64,000 nucleotides of DNA from a phage, in NCBI GenBank assembly GCA_024572335.1, contig GCA_024572335.1_3052.1; one strand, given 5' to 3'. This document shows positions 39,150 through 47,682 of this stretch, piece by piece. The notes under the pieces were generated by a model. The model did not search any database. It was not told the origin of the DNA and was given only the letters and a program-made list of their open reading frames with translations. Within the stretch, counting starts at the first letter, position 1, and every line of letters starts with the position of its first letter. The position numbers and the translations under genes were made by a program.

Positions 39150-39365
39150 TTACCCCAATTTAACCATACAATCGCCATATTTCCACTTAGAAATAGACTT
39201 TTCACCATTAGAATAATAAACTTCGAGTTTAGCACGATTATTTTTAATTTGAATAACCTTGGCTGTCATCAAAGTTCCATACCCATAATAAACTGCAACT
39301 TCATCACCTACATATACCGCGCTTCCGCGGTAATCATGAATATAGTCAGTTCCTTCAAGCATCAT
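39150..39365 (-). CDS. Hypothetical small protein
   Basis: 71 aa ATG ORF overlapping nrdC stop. Confidence 0.4.
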   Translation of the reverse strand: MMLEGTDYIHDYRGSAVYVGDEVAVYYGYGTLMTAKVIQIKNNRAKLEVYYSNGEKSISKWKYGDCMVKLG

Positions 39366-39625
39366 TTAAAATATTCTCGCAATTGGTCAAATCCACCAAT
39401 ATGACTTCCATCAGGAGCAAATACCTGAGGCATTGTCAAGCCGATTTGAGTATCACGACCTAGTTTAGTCAGAAGCTCAGCAATTTTCTCATCATCAAAA
39501 ACACCTTTTTCTGGCATAATGTTGATAAATTCAAATGGCTGTTTCTTCACGGTCAAAAGACGTTTTGCATTATCGCAATACACACATTTATGGATGTTGC
39601 TATCATAACCATATACTTTAAACAT
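39362..39625 (-). CDS. nrdC: Thioredoxin/glutaredoxin NrdC
   Basis: 87 aa; CVYC redox motif; size matches T4 NrdC. Confidence 0.7.
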   Translation of the reverse strand: MFKVYGYDSNIHKCVYCDNAKRLLTVKKQPFEFINIMPEKGVFDDEKIAELLTKLGRDTQIGLTMPQVFAPDGSHIGGFDQLREYFK

Positions 39626-39626
39626 A

Positions 39627-39884
39627 TTATTCCTTAATTCCTAGTACTTGTTTAAAAGTCTCGTCGTAATCAAGACTTTGGCCCGTTTGTTCTTTATGTT
39701 TGTATATAATATCACTTACTTCTGATAGCATATTTTTATATGAACGAGTTAAAGCAGATTTAAGCACGCTGTATCTATCAGGAAATTTACCATGTTCATT
39801 ATAATACGCTATTGCTAATTCACGGACTGCCTTTTCAGCAGTCTCCATATATTCTTTACGCTTTGTCATTTTCTTCTCGGTCAA
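39627..39884 (-). CDS. Hypothetical small protein (start uncertain)
   Basis: 85 aa track ORF with TTG start; internal ATGs at 39869 and 39848. Confidence 0.4.
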
Positions 39885-40173
39885 ATCGGTGTTTACAATG
39901 ACGACATTTATAACGAAGATTACTAGTCTGCCAATGAACTAATTGTACCTGTTCAGTACCGCATTCAGGACAATTAGGAACGCTTTTAGAAGCCCTTTCG
40001 CGACGTTCAACCATAGCCATAATGGCATCCCAAGCTGGAGGTTTAAAATCTAAATCATCACAACCGTGAATCTTTCCACGCATTTCCAGATCGTCTTCTT
40101 CACCAGCCATAATAATTTTAATTAGACTGGAATTACTTGAAGCTGCAATATCTTCTAATAGACGCTTTTTCAT
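39856..40173 (-). CDS. Zinc-ribbon protein
   Basis: 105 aa; CPECG...(18 aa)...CRHCKH four-cysteine ribbon. Confidence 0.45.
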
Positions 40174-41093
40174 TTCAGTACCTCAATAGCATCACGTAAA
40201 CCATTTGCTTTGGCGGTTAAAGCCTTAATAACTTTAGTATGCTCTTCAATCTGTTTTTCAACTTCAATCAAACGGGCACTGAGATATTCGCGTTCTTCTT
40301 TCATAGTATCATTCCCATGATTGGGCTTTGGCGTAGATTTAAATTTACTAGGGTCCTTTAACTTAATAACAACTTTAGTTTCAAACAGTGAAAGACCATA
40401 ATTCGTATTATCATCAAAGGATTCAACTACGTCCATTTTAGACAATAACGTACGAAGATTATAAGTCAAAGAACGAATCGTTTTATTATGTTTATTAGCT
40501 TCGCATGGTTTCATATATGGAAGATTTTTATATATTTCATGTGGAGCACAAACAATAATTGACAATTCAACTGGTCCATTCTGCGATGGAATGAATTTAG
40601 CCGTAACCCAATCTTTTACATTTACATTAATAGTACGGTCATCGCCATGACAAAACAGTCTACGAGAATGCTTAAAAAGCATATTCACATTATTATTAAA
40701 TTCGTGTGAAAACTCACTAGCAAATTTTTCTTTACTATTTTTAGAAAACCATTCTTCTAAATAAGTTCTTTTCACGTCATTAATAATATTAAATGTAACA
40801 ACATTAGCATTTGATACATTAGTCTCAATGTAGCTTGGATACATAAATTTTTTAACATTATTAACAGCTATCACAGAAGATAGTAATCGGGAACGTTTAA
40901 ACCATTCAAGCAAATTGCCTAACGAATGAGAATAAGCGTTTTGAGTATCTTTACAGATATGATTTTCCTGACCAACATATTGAAGGAAATCACGAAGAAT
41001 ATTATTGATTACTGCTCTGTGCCCGATCTGATAATTACGGTGTTTAGTAATAAGACTGTCAAAATAATCAATATAATGTTTACGAGTTTTCAT
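40170..41093 (-). CDS. Hypothetical protein with C-terminal coiled coil (array member 1)
   Basis: 307 aa; last about 40 aa heptad-like [42 protein letters not shown]. Confidence 0.5.
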   Translation of the reverse strand: MKTRKHYIDYFDSLITKHRNYQIGHRAVINNILRDFLQYVGQENHICKDTQNAYSHSLGNLLEWFKRSRLLSSVIAVNNVKKFMYPSYIETNVSNANVVTFNIINDVKRTYLEEWFSKNSKEKFASEFSHEFNNNVNMLFKHSRRLFCHGDDRTINVNVKDWVTAKFIPSQNGPVELSIIVCAPHEIYKNLPYMKPCEANKHNKTIRSLTYNLRTLLSKMDVVESFDDNTNYGLSLFETKVVIKLKDPSKFKSTPKPNHGNDTMKEEREYLSARLIEVEKQIEEHTKVIKALTAKANGLRDAIEVLK

Positions 41094-41145
41094 ATTCTTC
41101 TCACTTGGTTAATGGTTTATACTCCGAGCCATCCTTGGCTTTAAA

Positions 41146-42147
41146 TTACTTAATTAACTGTAAAGCTTGTTCAAGACGATCAAGACGATTAACGGATTCT
41201 TCCCAAATCTTTTTAGCCTGCTCATATTCTTTCTGCGCTTTATTAGAAATTTCTAGAACTTCTTTATAAGCTTTTTCTAGTGCAATAACTTCTGGACGAA
41301 TTTCTACCGGTTCAGGTGAATCGTCAAGATTATCCATTAGTTCCTCAAGGGTAGTTTCTTCTTTAGGAGTATTCACAATTTCCTCACATTTTTGTTGATA
41401 AATTTCTTTATCAGTAGGTGAATAAGCACATTTCACTTCACGAAGACTAATTACAATTTTATATCCTTCCCATCCGCATATATTCTTAAAAGGATATGTA
41501 TGAATATTTTCTACTGTTTCCATACAAAGTAATGCAGTCTCTAACTGACGAGTTATAGTGCTAGCAATTGAGAAAAATTTATTAATATTCTTTTGGTTAG
41601 TTTCTGGTGTAAAAAATCCATAATTCACAAAAATAGCTACTTTATTTTTATCAAGCTCATATTCTTTTACGATAATCATATCAGAAGCCAAAGGATGAAT
41701 TTGACGATAATCGCCATAACATAATTTAGAAGCTGATTTTAGAATTTGTCCTTTGAAAAGTCTGAAATTACTAATCCAACGACGAGTAAAAATATTCTCA
41801 GGGTCTTCTTTATTATTAAGATGATAAGAATTAACATCACCGAACCAATTATATCCTACTACATCTTTAGTTCGTTTAATTTCTTTCCCAAAATTACCAA
41901 GAATATCCCGATTAACCAAATATGAAAGAAGACGAGACTCTTTAAAAGTTTTTTTGATAACATCTTTATCTACACGGCTAGAAATTTTACGAATTTCATG
42001 AATAAATTTAGTAGAAGAAACAATACTTGCATCAACACTATTGAGCCATTGATTGATAATAGAAAGAACGATATTTTGACCAAACATCGGTATAGCTTTA
42101 TCATCAATAACGCTATTGAATGATTTGATATATTCGTTACGAGTCAT
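41146..42147 (-). CDS. Hypothetical protein with C-terminal coiled coil (array member 2)
   Basis: Track start TTG at 42201 lies in a promoter; ATG at 42147 (MTRNEY) follows SD GAGGAG; C-terminal coiled coil. Confidence 0.5.
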   Translation of the reverse strand: MTRNEYIKSFNSVIDDKAIPMFGQNIVLSIINQWLNSVDASIVSSTKFIHEIRKISSRVDKDVIKKTFKESRLLSYLVNRDILGNFGKEIKRTKDVVGYNWFGDVNSYHLNNKEDPENIFTRRWISNFRLFKGQILKSASKLCYGDYRQIHPLASDMIIVKEYELDKNKVAIFVNYGFFTPETNQKNINKFFSIASTITRQLETALLCMETVENIHTYPFKNICGWEGYKIVISLREVKCAYSPTDKEIYQQKCEEIVNTPKEETTLEELMDNLDDSPEPVEIRPEVIALEKAYKEVLEISNKAQKEYEQAKKIWEESVNRLDRLEQALQLIK

Positions 42148-42175
42148 AATAATAATCTCCTCAGTAGAAAGTAAG

Positions 42176-42208
42176 AACATTATACCACATCCTTGTGGCA
42201 ATGTAAAC
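42176..42208 (-). promoter_or_regulatory. Early promoter
   Basis: GTTTAC, 17 nt, tgGTATAAT; SD GAGGAG then ATG 42147. Confidence 0.55.
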
Positions 42209-43227
42209 TAGTTCAGTGCATTTAGTGCATTGTTCAGTTTAGAACGTTGCTTCGTAAGATTTTTGACTTTTTCTTGAGCTTTTTCCAACATCTTTTCAGC
42301 TTCTAGCACTTCATTAGTTGCTTTAACGAGTTCATCATCTACTGCCTTAAGGGACTTCTCAATCGCATCCGCGTGCCATTTTTCAACAGGTTTAAGACTC
42401 GGATTTTCAATAGGAAGAAAATTCACTTTATTGAATTTCCATGCATCTTTATTACCTGAACTATACATCCAAAATTTAGGATCATTTGACGAGTAATTAG
42501 ATAAATTTAAGGTATCTTGTACTTCCTGCTTTTTCTCTTGTGTAACTTCGTCCTTTCTCAAAAAATCGTATTTAAATGAAACGATCATATCAAGTTCATA
42601 TGTTGTTGTGTCTAATTTAAATCGTTCGAAATGCTGTGAAATCTTAGACTGAACTGCAGCAACAACATCCATATACTTAAATGCTTCTGTCAGCTGTGAT
42701 TTAAGGCATTCACAAATTGAAAGAGAATTTTTTGTATTAGGTTTAAAGCTAATTCGTGCAGTTCTATTATTTTCTTTTAATGGTCTTACTTCCATCTGAA
42801 GAGTATAACCATCAAATTTCAGATTCTTTAAGTTAATATCAGAGCCTTTTAATCGACTAGCCGTCGACAAAATTTGCTTTAATTGTTTACGGAATAGAGC
42901 AATAAATCTCCACTCAAGACGATAATGATTTGGATTAAAAAATCCAGATGATAAATCGACCTTACTCTGACCAACACCTTGAACAAACAGAGGATTTTTA
43001 TAATCAATAGTTTTACAGAAATCGGTGAGCTGCTCACGAGCAGTCATTTGTGTAATATACCCCGCTTTACTAAAATGACGTAACCATTCACTGCTATTCA
43101 TATATTTAAAGTGAATATCACGATTAACTTTATCAGGGTCTAAATTATTTTGGCACAAAAATGTCATAACATCACGAGTATAGCTGGCATTACGAACCAT
43201 ATCTTCAATTTGAGAACGAGTTTTCAT
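42208..43227 (-). CDS. Hypothetical protein with C-terminal coiled coil (array member 3)
   Basis: 339 aa; C-terminus LVKATNEVLEAEKMLEKAQEKVKNLTKQRSKLNNALNALN. Confidence 0.5.
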   Translation of the reverse strand: MKTRSQIEDMVRNASYTRDVMTFLCQNNLDPDKVNRDIHFKYMNSSEWLRHFSKAGYITQMTAREQLTDFCKTIDYKNPLFVQGVGQSKVDLSSGFFNPNHYRLEWRFIALFRKQLKQILSTASRLKGSDINLKNLKFDGYTLQMEVRPLKENNRTARISFKPNTKNSLSICECLKSQLTEAFKYMDVVAAVQSKISQHFERFKLDTTTYELDMIVSFKYDFLRKDEVTQEKKQEVQDTLNLSNYSSNDPKFWMYSSGNKDAWKFNKVNFLPIENPSLKPVEKWHADAIEKSLKAVDDELVKATNEVLEAEKMLEKAQEKVKNLTKQRSKLNNALNALN

Positions 43228-43235
43228 GGTGTTCC

Positions 43236-44123
43236 TTAAGATTTAAGTAAATCGACAATTTTAATTAACTTTTCACGCTCAGATTTAGCTTTACTACTCA
43301 ATCCAGATAGTCTGAAAATTTCATCGTCATACTGTTGAATAGAAATATTCAGCTCTTCAATTTGCTTATTAAAATAATCAATTTGTTCAGAATGTTTTTC
43401 ATTACTACGAACTGGTACAGGTTTTGTAGGTAATTTAGATGAACTGGATTCATCCGGGCGATAAATTAAAATACAACTTGAACCAATCGGGCATTTAGCA
43501 CCAGATGAATATTCTAATGTTCCGACTTCTTTTAAAACTTCAAAAGCTAAACAGAGATGATGCCCCATATTAACATAATCTGTAGAGCGAGCTCTGATGT
43601 AATAATCATCTCCGCGAATACTAAATTTAAAGCATTTAAGGTCTTCTGTATTATTGGTCTTAAAAATCATTTGTTTATCTAGACCTTTAGCTAATCGAGC
43701 GCCTAATGCTAATAATCGTCGTTGATTTTCCCACAAATCCGCAATCATTTGGTCAAATGATAATTTCGGCATTAGTCGACCATAAAGGTCGTATCCTTTA
43801 TTATAATTGCGAAGGATTTCACTCGCGTTAATACGAGACAATGCTCCAATTTTATTAAGTGCTTTCATAATGCGATTAGATAAACTCATTCCAGATCCGT
43901 TTGTTCGCTGTAAATGTTTTTCTAATCCAAATCCAATATCAACTTTAAATTTATCTAAAATTTCAGCATGAACATCTCTGTCAATAACATTCAAATCCAA
44001 AGTTGGGTTAAATCTATGAAAAAATTTATCTGGCTCTCCACGACGAAGTACAGTCCATTCATTTAATTTTTTATTAACTAAAGATTTAATTACTGCATTG
44101 ACATTATTAATTACTACTGACAT
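43236..44123 (-). CDS. Hypothetical protein with C-terminal coiled coil (array member 4)
   Basis: Track has TTG start; ATG at 44123; C-terminus QIEELNISIQQYDDEIFRLSGLSSKAKSEREKLIKIVDLLKS. Confidence 0.5.
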   Translation of the reverse strand: MSVVINNVNAVIKSLVNKKLNEWTVLRRGEPDKFFHRFNPTLDLNVIDRDVHAEILDKFKVDIGFGLEKHLQRTNGSGMSLSNRIMKALNKIGALSRINASEILRNYNKGYDLYGRLMPKLSFDQMIADLWENQRRLLALGARLAKGLDKQMIFKTNNTEDLKCFKFSIRGDDYYIRARSTDYVNMGHHLCLAFEVLKEVGTLEYSSGAKCPIGSSCILIYRPDESSSSKLPTKPVPVRSNEKHSEQIDYFNKQIEELNISIQQYDDEIFRLSGLSSKAKSEREKLIKIVDLLKS

Positions 44124-44134
44124 ATTTTTCTCAC

Positions 44135-44539
44135 TCAATTTTCAATTTTACTAAATACACAGAATATGATGGAAAAGACTATATAAGCACCGCATACAGA
44201 TTGAACTAATACCATTCCAAAGAACCAAACAATATTATCAAACAATGTCTGTTTTACGTCGAAAGGACGTAAACTTACAGTAATATTATCGCCTTTTTCT
44301 ATTGATGAATACATCTCTGGTGAAATATATTCACTAAATCTATAACCGTCTTTGAGTTCATATACGGCAATAAACGATAAACTAGACCCCTTTCCTTGAG
44401 TTCCTGTAAGGGTATTAACTACAGTAACATCATAATCTTTATAATGCATATAATCATTAATTGCGTAATAACCATATGCAATTACTACACATAAACAACA
44501 TATCAATAAATTCAATCTTTTAATTATCAACTGTTTCAT
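44135..44539 (-). CDS. Membrane protein
   Basis: 134 aa; N- and C-terminal hydrophobic helices. Confidence 0.45.
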   Translation of the reverse strand: MKQLIIKRLNLLICCLCVVIAYGYYAINDYMHYKDYDVTVVNTLTGTQGKGSSLSFIAVYELKDGYRFSEYISPEMYSSIEKGDNITVSLRPFDVKQTLFDNIVWFFGMVLVQSVCGAYIVFSIIFCVFSKIEN

Positions 44540-44594
44540 AATAATCTCAATTAAAAGGGCTTAGAACCATTATACCATCCTTGGTATAAAGCGG

Positions 44595-45122
44595 TTATGC
44601 GAGTACCGTCTTTAACCGTTCTTCAAACTTCCGAAGAGTATTTTGGCGTTCAGCTCTTTGCTTTTTGTAAGTTTCAATACGCTCTGAAATGAGAGTGTAT
44701 CGCTCATTTACTGATTCTTTCATAAAATCAGGAATTTCACGAGAAGCTTTAATCTCGTCAAATTTATCAATAACAGCTTGCTCTTCAGCAATTAAGTTAT
44801 CATACATTAAAATATCTTTCTTGATAAACTCAATATCTTCTTGAGTTACACGAGATAATTTAGATGCTTTATCCTTTTTGTACTGTTCGTTAGTATCACG
44901 AGACCAGTGTAATGTACGATTTTTATTCGTGTTCTTGTAAATTTCTACAATACCAATCTCATCGATAATAACGATCCAATTCCAACGGGATTTGTAAATT
45001 TGTCCTCCATCAACAGTGATTTCACCACCGATTGAGACATCATTAAAGAACTTGCTTTGAGCTTCAGATTTAAATTTACCATCGTTATAATTTATCAGGT
45101 TGAAAATATCTTTAGCGTTCAT
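44595..45122 (-). CDS. Hypothetical protein with helical C-terminus
   Basis: 175 aa; strong SD GGAGG; own early promoter. Confidence 0.5.
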   Translation of the reverse strand: MNAKDIFNLINYNDGKFKSEAQSKFFNDVSIGGEITVDGGQIYKSRWNWIVIIDEIGIVEIYKNTNKNRTLHWSRDTNEQYKKDKASKLSRVTQEDIEFIKKDILMYDNLIAEEQAVIDKFDEIKASREIPDFMKESVNERYTLISERIETYKKQRAERQNTLRKFEERLKTVLA

Positions 45123-46668: not shown

Positions 46669-47682
46669 TCATTTATAATAACTTCGGTGGTTTTCAAGAT
46701 AAACCCTCTCAAGGAAGTCATCCCAAAAACCCATGTCTACTTTTTGCTGCATACCGTTCTTAGAAGCTTCAATAGATGCTGCTTCTACTTGATCGACCAC
46801 ATCTTCCAAAAACTCTTGAACAGTTTTAAATGGGTGTTTACCCAGCTTCACGTCGAGAATAAATGGAGCGTCTTGAAGTGGATAGACTAAGTCACCAGTT
46901 TTGTAAATTTCCAATAGTTGGAGTCCACCACGACAAGCATGACTCAGAGCTTTCCAGTCAATGCCCTCATTCGCTTCAGCCTTACGAGCACGTTCGCCGT
47001 ATTCAGCATCAAGTTTATTCAAAGACTGCTTAAGCTCAATAAGAGAAAGTGTTGTCTGATATTTACGACCCAACACAGTGTAGAACGTTTGTGGACCGGT
47101 TTTCTCATGATTATGGAATACCCATTCACAAAACTCGTTTTCAGGGAGTCGGTGTTTGATATCTTCTACCTTAGTTCGGCGTAAACGATCTGGAATTCCC
47201 TCTTGGTAATCAACCCACTGGTCAGGGATTTGATTAACTACTTTCAATACATCACGTAATGCGGCCAAACGAGAACCCTTGACACCGTATTTAGAAGCTT
47301 GCTTGCGGACATATCCTAAATAGGATTTCATGTTAGTCGTATAAAAACGAGAACGGTTGTCTTGAATAAACTTCCACACATCAGGCAAATCAGATTTAAC
47401 CACTAGTTCAGGTGGAGTGTGAAGCATATCCAATGCTACAGTTTCACCATCTGCTGCTAATTTAAAGAAATATTTAAGACTGTATAGTTCATGGTCAATA
47501 TCATCTTTAGTGTTTTTAGATGATGTGTTGTTAGTGTTTTTACTCATGTGCTCTTTGACATTTCCGATAAGAATATCGCGGGCAGGAGGAACAAAGATTT
47601 CTTTAAAATCTACATCAGATTCTGGGGTAGAAGTTCCATAAAGATGACTACCAAAATAGCTTTTCATTACTGTTTTCATCAT
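46669..47682 (-). CDS. Pol-beta superfamily nucleotidyltransferase-like protein
   Basis: 337 aa; N-terminal hG[GS]x9DxD motif YFGSHLYGTSTPESDVDF and downstream VALDML acidic motif. Confidence 0.55.
   Translation of the reverse strand: MMKTVMKSYFGSHLYGTSTPESDVDFKEIFVPPARDILIGNVKEHMSKNTNNTSSKNTKDDIDHELYSLKYFFKLAADGETVALDMLHTPPELVVKSDLPDVWKFIQDNRSRFYTTNMKSYLGYVRKQASKYGVKGSRLAALRDVLKVVNQIPDQWVDYQEGIPDRLRRTKVEDIKHRLPENEFCEWVFHNHEKTGPQTFYTVLGRKYQTTLSLIELKQSLNKLDAEYGERARKAEANEGIDWKALSHACRGGLQLLEIYKTGDLVYPLQDAPFILDVKLGKHPFKTVQEFLEDVVDQVEAASIEASKNGMQQKVDMGFWDDFLERVYLENHRSYYK

Follow-up and report, generated by a model that had tools for sequence, protein, structure and literature searches.

The genes nrdC.3, nrdC.4, nrdC.5 and nrdC.6 lie next to each other in a T4-like phage. 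They are part of a 64,000-nt stretch of contig GCA_024572335.1_3052.1 (NCBI GenBank assembly GCA_024572335.1), which is called the window below and whose source is a Tequatrovirus. An earlier note, made from the letters of the window, had described them as genes with unrelated-looking bodies that all end in a heptad-rich helix. The open reading frames (ORFs) were found where the note had placed them, all on the minus strand. The follow-up indicates that nrdC.3 to nrdC.6 very probably form one superfamily specific for Straboviridae that arose by duplication. Every member has the same three-part build: an alpha/beta body of ~230-240 amino acids (aa), a disordered linker of 20-60 aa and a terminal amphipathic helix of 42-56 aa.

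The nrdC.3-nrdC.6 array

The array is a tightly packed minus-strand block bordered by nrdC, which encodes a glutaredoxin, on one side and by nrdC.10 and nrdC.11, which encode an AAA-type ATPase and a nucleotidyltransferase, on the other (Table 1). Gene names were assigned one-to-one via the record of phage AR1, which carries the T4 nomenclature. A region of 8.4 kb around the array is 95-97% identical to many T-even genomes, and several hundred Tequatrovirus genomes (466 records) contain most of it. NrdC.5 is ~90-94% identical to T4 NrdC.5 in two tblastn segments, a value that is only approximate because the T4 record used, OL964745.1, is a damaged lab mutant. NrdC.5 also matches DUF7235 (PF23882) over its full length with 409.3 bits (E = 1.5e-122), far above the gathering threshold of 30 bits. 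In the same Pfam scan, nrdC.3, nrdC.4 and nrdC.6 had no match to DUF7235, so that they are relatives at the superfamily level only. Retrieved homologs were all labelled PF26897 (nrdC.3/nrdC.4 family) or PF26899 (nrdC.6 family); these labels are precomputed, and the assignments in Table 1 are based on such labels of close homologs and not on scoring of the window proteins.

Table 1. Genes, C-terminal helices and other features of the locus. Positions are those of the window, except for the nrdC.2 junctions, which are given for related loci.
Feature	Position	Strand	Description
nrdC	39362-39625		glutaredoxin, identified from sequence and record annotations
nrdC.2	39856-40173	minus	105 aa; zinc-ribbon protein, two CxxC motifs
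nrdC.3	40170-41093	minus	307 aa; PF26897 (precomputed), PHROG 1435
nrdC.3 C-terminal heptad helix	40173-40298	minus	residues 266-307; 42 aa; z = 4.3
nrdC.4	41146-42147	minus	333 aa; PF26897 (precomputed), PHROG 1435
nrdC.4 C-terminal heptad helix	41149-41295	minus	residues 285-333; ends RLEQALQLIK; z = 4.1
Promoter-like site, sigma-70/T4-early-type	42179-42207	minus	TTTACA-17-TATAAT, TG-extended; in the nrdC.5-nrdC.4 spacer
nrdC.5	42208-43227	minus	339 aa; Pfam DUF7235 (PF23882)
nrdC.5 C-terminal heptad helix	42211-42381	minus	residues 283-339; ends KQRSKLNNALNALN; z = 6.2
nrdC.6	43236-44123	minus	295 aa; PF26899 (precomputed), PHROG 2257; most divergent of the four
nrdC.6 C-terminal heptad helix	43239-43385	minus	residues 247-295; ends EKLIKIVDLLKS; z = 4.6
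nrdC.7	44135-44539	minus	134 aa; small membrane protein inside the array, passed over in the earlier note
nrdC.8	44595-45122	minus	175 aa; PHROG 2274
nrdC.11	46669-47682		nucleotidyltransferase
nrdC.2 junctions elsewhere	L001 10614, L002 10569, L003 6945, L006 15947, L007 15694		

Relationship of the four bodies

As the families have diverged too far for sequence-to-profile searches, they were linked by profile-profile comparison and with the help of bridging sequences. Non-redundant family alignments were built from three database searches and compared by hhalign. PHROG 1435 contains both nrdC.3 and nrdC.4; their BLASTP alignment spans 259 residues, and hhalign joins them with P = 1.2e-15 over 211 columns. 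After very divergent nrdC.5 orthologs from Mosigvirus and Dhakavirus had been added, nrdC.4 and nrdC.5 aligned with P = 2.4e-5 over 248 collinear columns including the tail, and nrdC.3 and nrdC.5 with P = 4e-4. The nrdC.6 family is connected by way of other genera: it matches the Kanagawavirus CIP9 group (P = 1.2e-5, 164 columns), which matches the Marfavirus F48 group (P = 2e-10, 237 columns), which in turn matches nrdC.4 (P = 7e-8 over 231 columns) as well as nrdC.5 (P = 3e-8). A further bridge leads from nrdC.5 to Jiaodavirus Mineola (P = 3.5e-6). The F48 protein (P0264) has a body that matches the nrdC.4 profile and a tail that matches the nrdC.5 profile. In a joint alignment, the bodies share an N-terminal M(K)TR and the motifs FKxSRxLS, AS(K/R)L..GD and AL..MDVVE, and the gap in the nrdC.4 tail measures exactly one heptad.

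AlphaFold2 (AF2) models of NrdC.4 and NrdC.5 display the same order of secondary-structure elements. A Foldseek search with the NrdC.4 model against BFVD yielded 20 entries with E < 1e-3, all of them T4-like phage proteins of ~280-370 aa. Among them are JS10 NrdC.6 (E = 1.4e-5) and, from Acinetobacter phage Acj61, two proteins whose UniProt accessions are consecutive. With the NrdC.5 model, eight entries had E < 1e-3; seven of them are also matched by NrdC.4, the KPV15 protein with E = 6.4e-3 and the other six with E < 1e-3. Collinear profile-profile similarity links the four families, and they have in common a fold, as judged from the NrdC.4 and NrdC.5 models of the window, and the three-part build. 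The bodies, which the earlier note had described as unrelated-looking, are homologous according to PHROG 1435, hhalign and the structural evidence. Its proposal of diversification by duplication holds: The four genes belong to one superfamily, whose copy number varies from one to four across genera.

An exhaustive HMMER search with the nrdC.3/nrdC.4 profile against 1.8 billion representatives found 11 proteins only. The family occurs in T4-like phages only and diverges quickly. Sequence searches of the PDB returned noise (E > 0.1), and the body has no solved structural relative. An NCBIfam scan gave no matches, and a PADLOC scan one weak match to the BrxC coiled coil, nothing useful. Searches for related loci yielded none with the Mineola protein and only four with the CIP9 protein.

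The C-terminal heptad helix

Heptad amphipathicity was scored by a purpose-made scheme, not a published predictor, in every 28-residue segment of 109 non-overlapping genes of the window. The top four C-terminal scores belong to nrdC.5 (14.0), nrdC.3 (12.9), nrdC.8 (12.7) and nrdC.4 (12.5), and the 99th percentile over all segments is 10.6. nrdC.6 reaches 12.3 at residues 245-272, just ahead of a short SGLSS break. The probability that the four top-scoring genes fall within six adjacent genes is ≤2.8e-4. Each of the tails runs in one uninterrupted register for 42-56 residues (z = 3.9-6.2 when compared with shuffles that preserve the composition); the four or more uninterrupted heptads in a predicted helix by which a coiled coil was judged are present. 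In nrdC.3, nrdC.4 and nrdC.5, the core positions are located at -1 and -4 (mod 7) from the C-terminus. In nrdC.6, they are found one residue further in: The register runs on through the SGLSS break, and the phase is the same as in the others with one extra terminal residue. The AF2 model of NrdC.4 (predicted local distance difference test, pLDDT, 81; predicted template modelling score, pTM, 0.66) comprises an alpha/beta body (residues 1-240), a disordered linker (~250-284) and a continuous helix of 48 residues (285-332). Likewise, the NrdC.5 model (pLDDT 67) has a disordered linker at 226-282 and a continuous helix of 56 residues at 283-338. The amphipathic helix at the end of each gene, which the earlier note had put at roughly 40 residues, is thus present but somewhat longer. 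A comparison of the tails with Pfam gave weak generic coiled-coil matches only.

The cores of nrdC.3 and nrdC.6 have beta-branched residues at position a and Leu at position d. This pattern is typical of parallel dimers. In all members, including 11 lineage representatives from seven genera, the sequence closes with L-x-x-(A/V)-hydrophobic-x-x-L, after which there are at most two more residues, usually K; QRxK is often found just before. Written out, the terminal motif is (Q/R)(R)xK-L-x-x-A-hydrophobic-x-x-L-(K). The nrdC.5 version QR.KL..A...L.K recurs in relatives from Mosig-, Dhaka-, Marfa- and Kanagawavirus. A stricter form closes three of 563 stop-to-stop frames of the window, namely nrdC.3, nrdC.4 and nrdC.5; since the motif was derived from these three, the count only indicates that it is rare elsewhere.

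Conservation of tail and body

A comparison of the paralogs gave 14-26% identity for the tails (42 residues) and 17-21% for the bodies; only the last ~10-15 residues of the tails stand out. DNA repeats >23 nt were not found between the array genes. A tail that was grafted onto the bodies or recently exchanged among them was considered and rejected, because paralog tails are no closer than bodies and no such repeat exists. The tail was inherited with the whole gene, diverged after duplication and was then held constant. Whole-gene paralogy therefore takes the place of the shared module on unrelated bodies that had been proposed before.

Among orthologs, conservation is higher in the tail than in the body. 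When distant orthologs were compared with the protein of the window, identity amounted to 0.78 in the tail and 0.60 in the body for nrdC.3, to 0.65 (0.77 in the last 20 residues) and 0.40 for nrdC.4, to 0.40 and 0.26 for nrdC.5 and to 0.63 and 0.36 for nrdC.6. Conservation is nearly as high at the solvent-facing heptad positions as in the core. The excess of tail over body conservation in all four ortholog groups shows that, in a protein that evolves fast, the tail is under the strongest constraint and is not a generic charged helix. The tails are real features, not random ones, and are subject to functional constraint.

A likeness in composition only, with generic charged helices that share neither function nor ancestry, is what would have spoken against the earlier note, and it is highly improbable for nrdC.3-nrdC.6. 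Low identity between paralog tails would fit such a likeness, offsets of +/-7 or 14 score as well as 0 for some family pairs, and the scenario appears to hold for nrdC.8. However, the whole proteins are homologous, and the tails are thus homologous by descent. They share the heptad phase counted from the C-terminus and the terminal motif: Offset zero anchored at the C-terminus ranks 1, 1, 1, 2, 3 and 3 of 49 offsets in the six family pairs, a ranking for which one extra terminal residue of nrdC.6 was removed, a choice made after the data had been seen. In addition, the tail is the most conserved segment in each ortholog group, and distant single-copy relatives keep it. For the four genes, this explanation is largely refuted.

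nrdC.8 was tried as fifth member and rejected (hhalign P ≥ 0.05 against all four families, hmmscan E ≥ 0.03). It differs from nrdC.3-nrdC.6 in length and evolves much more slowly (84% and 69% identity across genera). The earlier note had listed this ORF for a similar helix at its end. It does end in a heptad helix, but its tail appears to resemble the others in heptad character only, with no homology detectable in the sequence, and it is not a family member. A BFVD entry of the length of nrdC.8, the 175-aa protein A0A1J0MH73 of Klebsiella phage KPV15, weakly matches the models of NrdC.4 (E = 6.4e-3) and NrdC.5 (E = 7.7e-4).

Evolution of the array across genera

Compared with a Mosigvirus and a Dhaka-like phage, nrdC, nrdC.8, nrdC.10 and nrdC.11 are 69-92% identical and the paralogs 22-55%. 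The content of the array differs as well: Mosigvirus S143_2 carries nrdC.6-, nrdC.5- and nrdC.3-like genes, and the Dhaka-like phage nrdC.6-, nrdC.5- and nrdC.4-like genes. Marfavirus, Jiaodavirus, Kanagawavirus and Acinetobacter Lazarusvirus each possess one member of ~315-343 aa in the syntenic slot. In these four genera, the family ORF is the only one with a top-percentile C-terminal heptad score (12.0-13.8), and the other ORFs of the slot score ≤3.2. Single-copy genera are an independent replicate of the architecture. This distribution suggests one ancestral copy that was expanded in the Tequatro/Mosig/Dhaka lineage. Genes were gained and lost between genera, with copy numbers between one and four, and fast divergence combined with gene gain and loss is the signature of an arms race.

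Rearrangements within the array were also found. In the natural protein P0056 (299 aa, on three contigs), residues ~145-265 of nrdC.5 are fused in frame to nrdC.3 from ~149 to the end, and nrdC.4 has been deleted. This shows that recombination and gene loss occur within the array in nature. OL964745.1, the record of the T4 lab mutant clone T4_7t1, lacks nrdC.3 almost exactly (the region equivalent to 40190-41094 of the window) and has broken reading frames in nrdC.4, nrdC.5, nrdC.7, nrdC.1 and nrdC.2. These defects mean either that the array is dispensable under laboratory conditions or that the record holds sequencing errors. The array appears to be dispensable and is plastic.

The gene nrdC.7, which interrupts the array in the window, sits after nrdC.2 in Mosigvirus (L001 10919-11332). 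In the Dhaka-like phage, an unrelated-looking hydrophobic ORF of 66 aa is located between the nrdC.6- and nrdC.5-like genes (L002 8431-8631).

Coupling to nrdC.2

The stop codon of nrdC.3 overlaps the start codon of nrdC.2 (ATGA, 40170-40173). In six Tevenvirinae genera, nrdC.2 follows directly 3' of the last or only family member with a stop/start overlap of 1-4 nt; Acinetobacter phage Kimel lacks this pair. The overlap suggests translational coupling and a possible functional partnership, with nrdC.2 as a candidate partner.

NrdC.2 would also be a concrete candidate for the common partner in an adaptor model. Here, the tail, and especially its terminal motif, would dock all paralogs on one partner, a host machine or a phage protein, and the bodies would bring different host targets. 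The terminal motif kept across paralogs and 11 lineage representatives is consistent with such docking, and so are solvent-exposed tail positions that are conserved as well as the core and the suggested coupled expression of the last or only member with nrdC.2. Precedents for shared docking modules on diversified bodies are known from T4 internal proteins and poxvirus ankyrin proteins; the latter carry a C-terminal PRANC/F-box for this purpose. On the other hand, a surface of 45 residues that binds one partner would be expected to show more than the 14-26% identity seen between paralog tails outside their final ~10-15 residues. Furthermore, coupling to nrdC.2 is limited to the last gene of the array, and the member of the Acinetobacter phage has no nrdC.2 neighbour. 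Docking of this kind is a doubtful, albeit serious, competitor for the role of the tail.

Gene starts, labels and neighbouring genes

The promoter-like site in the spacer between nrdC.5 and nrdC.4 is the best consensus match of the region (11/12) and, as a consensus match only, putative. In some annotations, nrdC.4 is 343 aa long and starts with the ATG at 42180. As this ATG falls within the -10 element, the longer annotation is probably wrong. The ATG at 42147 is favoured: GAGGAG, a ribosome-binding site, is located nine nt 5' of it, and the N-terminus MTRNEY is kept in orthologs.

Many GenBank phage records call the products of nrdC.2 to nrdC.11 'thioredoxin' or 'Thioredoxin, phage-associated'. 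A Pfam scan of these ten proteins, in which nrdC itself was not included, detected no thioredoxin domain. The labels appear to have spread from the gene names. In AR1, the homing endonuclease gene segE lies between nrdC.9 and nrdC.10 (L004 6485-6982); the window does not contain segE. This again points to a hot spot for mobile insertions. The nucleotidyltransferase NrdC.11 has the same sequence (100% identity) as that of Escherichia phage ime09. It anchors the locus in >1,500 records of phages, from those of Escherichia to those of Vibrio, and is therefore a convenient synteny marker.

Proposed function and mechanism

A published function exists for one of the genes. A T4 clone without nrdC.5 failed to plate on ECOR17 or on MG1655 with ECOR17 dsr1, and nrdC.5 alone in trans restored plating (PMC9391042). 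In that study, nrdC.5 was treated as a lone uncharacterised gene, and neither a paralog family nor a domain build or mechanism was described (Srikant et al., 2022, eLife; PMC9391042). Dsr1 senses the phage major capsid protein via an Avs7-type sensor domain (PMC13581612). Two neighbours act against other defence systems, nrdC.1 against Septu (bioRxiv 10.1101/2025.11.20.689424) and 49.2 (gp49.2) against OLD (PMC13096335). The anti-defence role that the earlier note had considered for such gene families has thus a basis at this locus.

The best explanation overall, with a probability of about 0.6, is that ancient tandem duplicates form an anti-defence family with target-specific bodies and a self-associating tail. 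According to this proposal, nrdC.3 to nrdC.6, very probably four ancient tandem duplicates of one early gene, would act as anti-defence or host-range effectors. The fast-evolving body of each paralog would recognise a different host immune protein. NrdC.5, an early protein, would most plausibly bind Dsr1 and occupy or mask its capsid-protein sensor before gp23 is made. The tail on its flexible linker would most likely self-associate as a parallel coiled coil. Pairing of tails would make the inhibitor bivalent or multivalent, which would suit oligomeric immune proteins. Tail sequences that are specific for each paralog and conserved among orthologs could prevent cross-pairing of co-expressed copies. 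As to the parts of the proposal, a counter-defence role of the whole family is favoured, and self-association as the job of the tail stands at about even odds.

Several points weigh against this proposal. Direct hhalign comparisons of nrdC.6 are weak (P = 0.0035-0.12; 0.02-0.12 with the nrdC.4 and nrdC.5 families), so that its membership depends on a transitive chain and one Foldseek match, with no direct strong match. The NrdC.5 model is of moderate confidence, and its alignment held nrdC.3/nrdC.4 sequences, by which its likeness to NrdC.4 is not fully independent. Oligomerisation of the tail is a prediction from sequence, and neither the Ala-rich d positions of NrdC.5 nor the aromatic and Ser core of NrdC.4 is that of a canonical dimer. 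Conserved surface positions and a terminal motif across paralogs would be explained by a bound external partner no less well than by self-association. Anti-defence activity is known for nrdC.5 alone, from genetics, and its binding to Dsr1 is a supposition. A literature search found nothing on function, phenotype, paralogy or tail of nrdC.3, nrdC.4 and nrdC.6, and no paper that mentions DUF7235.

It was also considered that the family is not generally directed against defence. nrdC.3, nrdC.4 and nrdC.6 might serve host takeover, modulation of nucleoid or transcription or a scaffold role, and the anti-Dsr1 effect might be a specialised or indirect offshoot. The silence of the literature on a phenotype of these three genes leaves room for such roles. 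By contrast, very fast divergence, changing copy number and dispensability (the nrdC.5::nrdC.3 fusion, the T4 mutant without nrdC.3) point to an accessory role in an arms race, and the genes are embedded among proven anti-defence genes. Such other roles are therefore rather unlikely for the family as a whole.

A bolder idea, and a long shot, is that the tails are assembly elements which either bundle the paralogs into a hetero-oligomeric hub with several target-binding bodies or dock each on NrdC.2. If true, T4 would neutralise several pattern-recognition immune sensors via one scaffold; Dsr1 would be one of them, and others might be Avs-type sensors that respond to late structural proteins.

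Significance and comparison with known systems

The genes themselves and the function of nrdC.5 are already known. What appears to be new is the recognition of nrdC.3-nrdC.6 as one family with a conserved tail, a family that brings together three separate Pfam entries and many T4-like phage proteins that had been orphans. About a dozen uncharacterised protein groups become linked in this way; they come from T4-like phages whose hosts are Klebsiella, Enterobacter, Acinetobacter, Erwinia, Serratia and Aeromonas. T4 is a reference phage, yet nrdC.3, nrdC.4 and nrdC.6 are still "hypothetical" and often mislabelled "thioredoxin". Their paralogy with the sole gene known to defeat Dsr1 makes them specific candidates for anti-defence screens. 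As copy number tracks lineage, it could mark the evolution of host range in therapy phages. The array is a useful, testable lead and no new kind of system.

With regard to T4 NrdC.5 (DUF7235), nrdC.5 of the window is the ortholog, and nrdC.3, nrdC.4 and nrdC.6 are paralogs of the same architecture, which Pfam distributes together with it over three unlinked families. DSAD1 is a phage inhibitor of the sirtuin defence protein DSR2 and was reported to counter the activation of DSR2 by a phage structural protein (PMC10981675, PMC11087589). NrdC.5 might be functionally analogous on Dsr1, as a phage protein that neutralises a SIR2-type sensor-effector; the analogy is one of working principle without homology, and no sequence or fold similarity to DSAD1 was found when tested.

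A likeness within the same phage is provided by the T4 internal proteins IPI, IPII and IPIII, which are encoded in a hyperplastic locus and also combine a conserved terminal element with fast-evolving, partly anti-defence bodies. Their capsid-targeting sequence is an N-terminal packaging signal of ~10 residues. In contrast, nrdC.3-nrdC.6 have a C-terminal helix of 42-56 residues, their bodies are homologous and no association with the virion is known. IPIII has been implicated in host range (PMC9391042). Similarly, the nrdC tails resemble leucine-zipper tails of the bZIP type in their continuous heptads, in the beta-branched a and Leu d positions of nrdC.3 and nrdC.6 and in sequences that are conserved among orthologs and different between paralogs. 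They differ from them by the lack of a basic DNA-binding region and by the non-canonical cores of NrdC.4 (aromatic/Ser) and NrdC.5 (Ala-rich).

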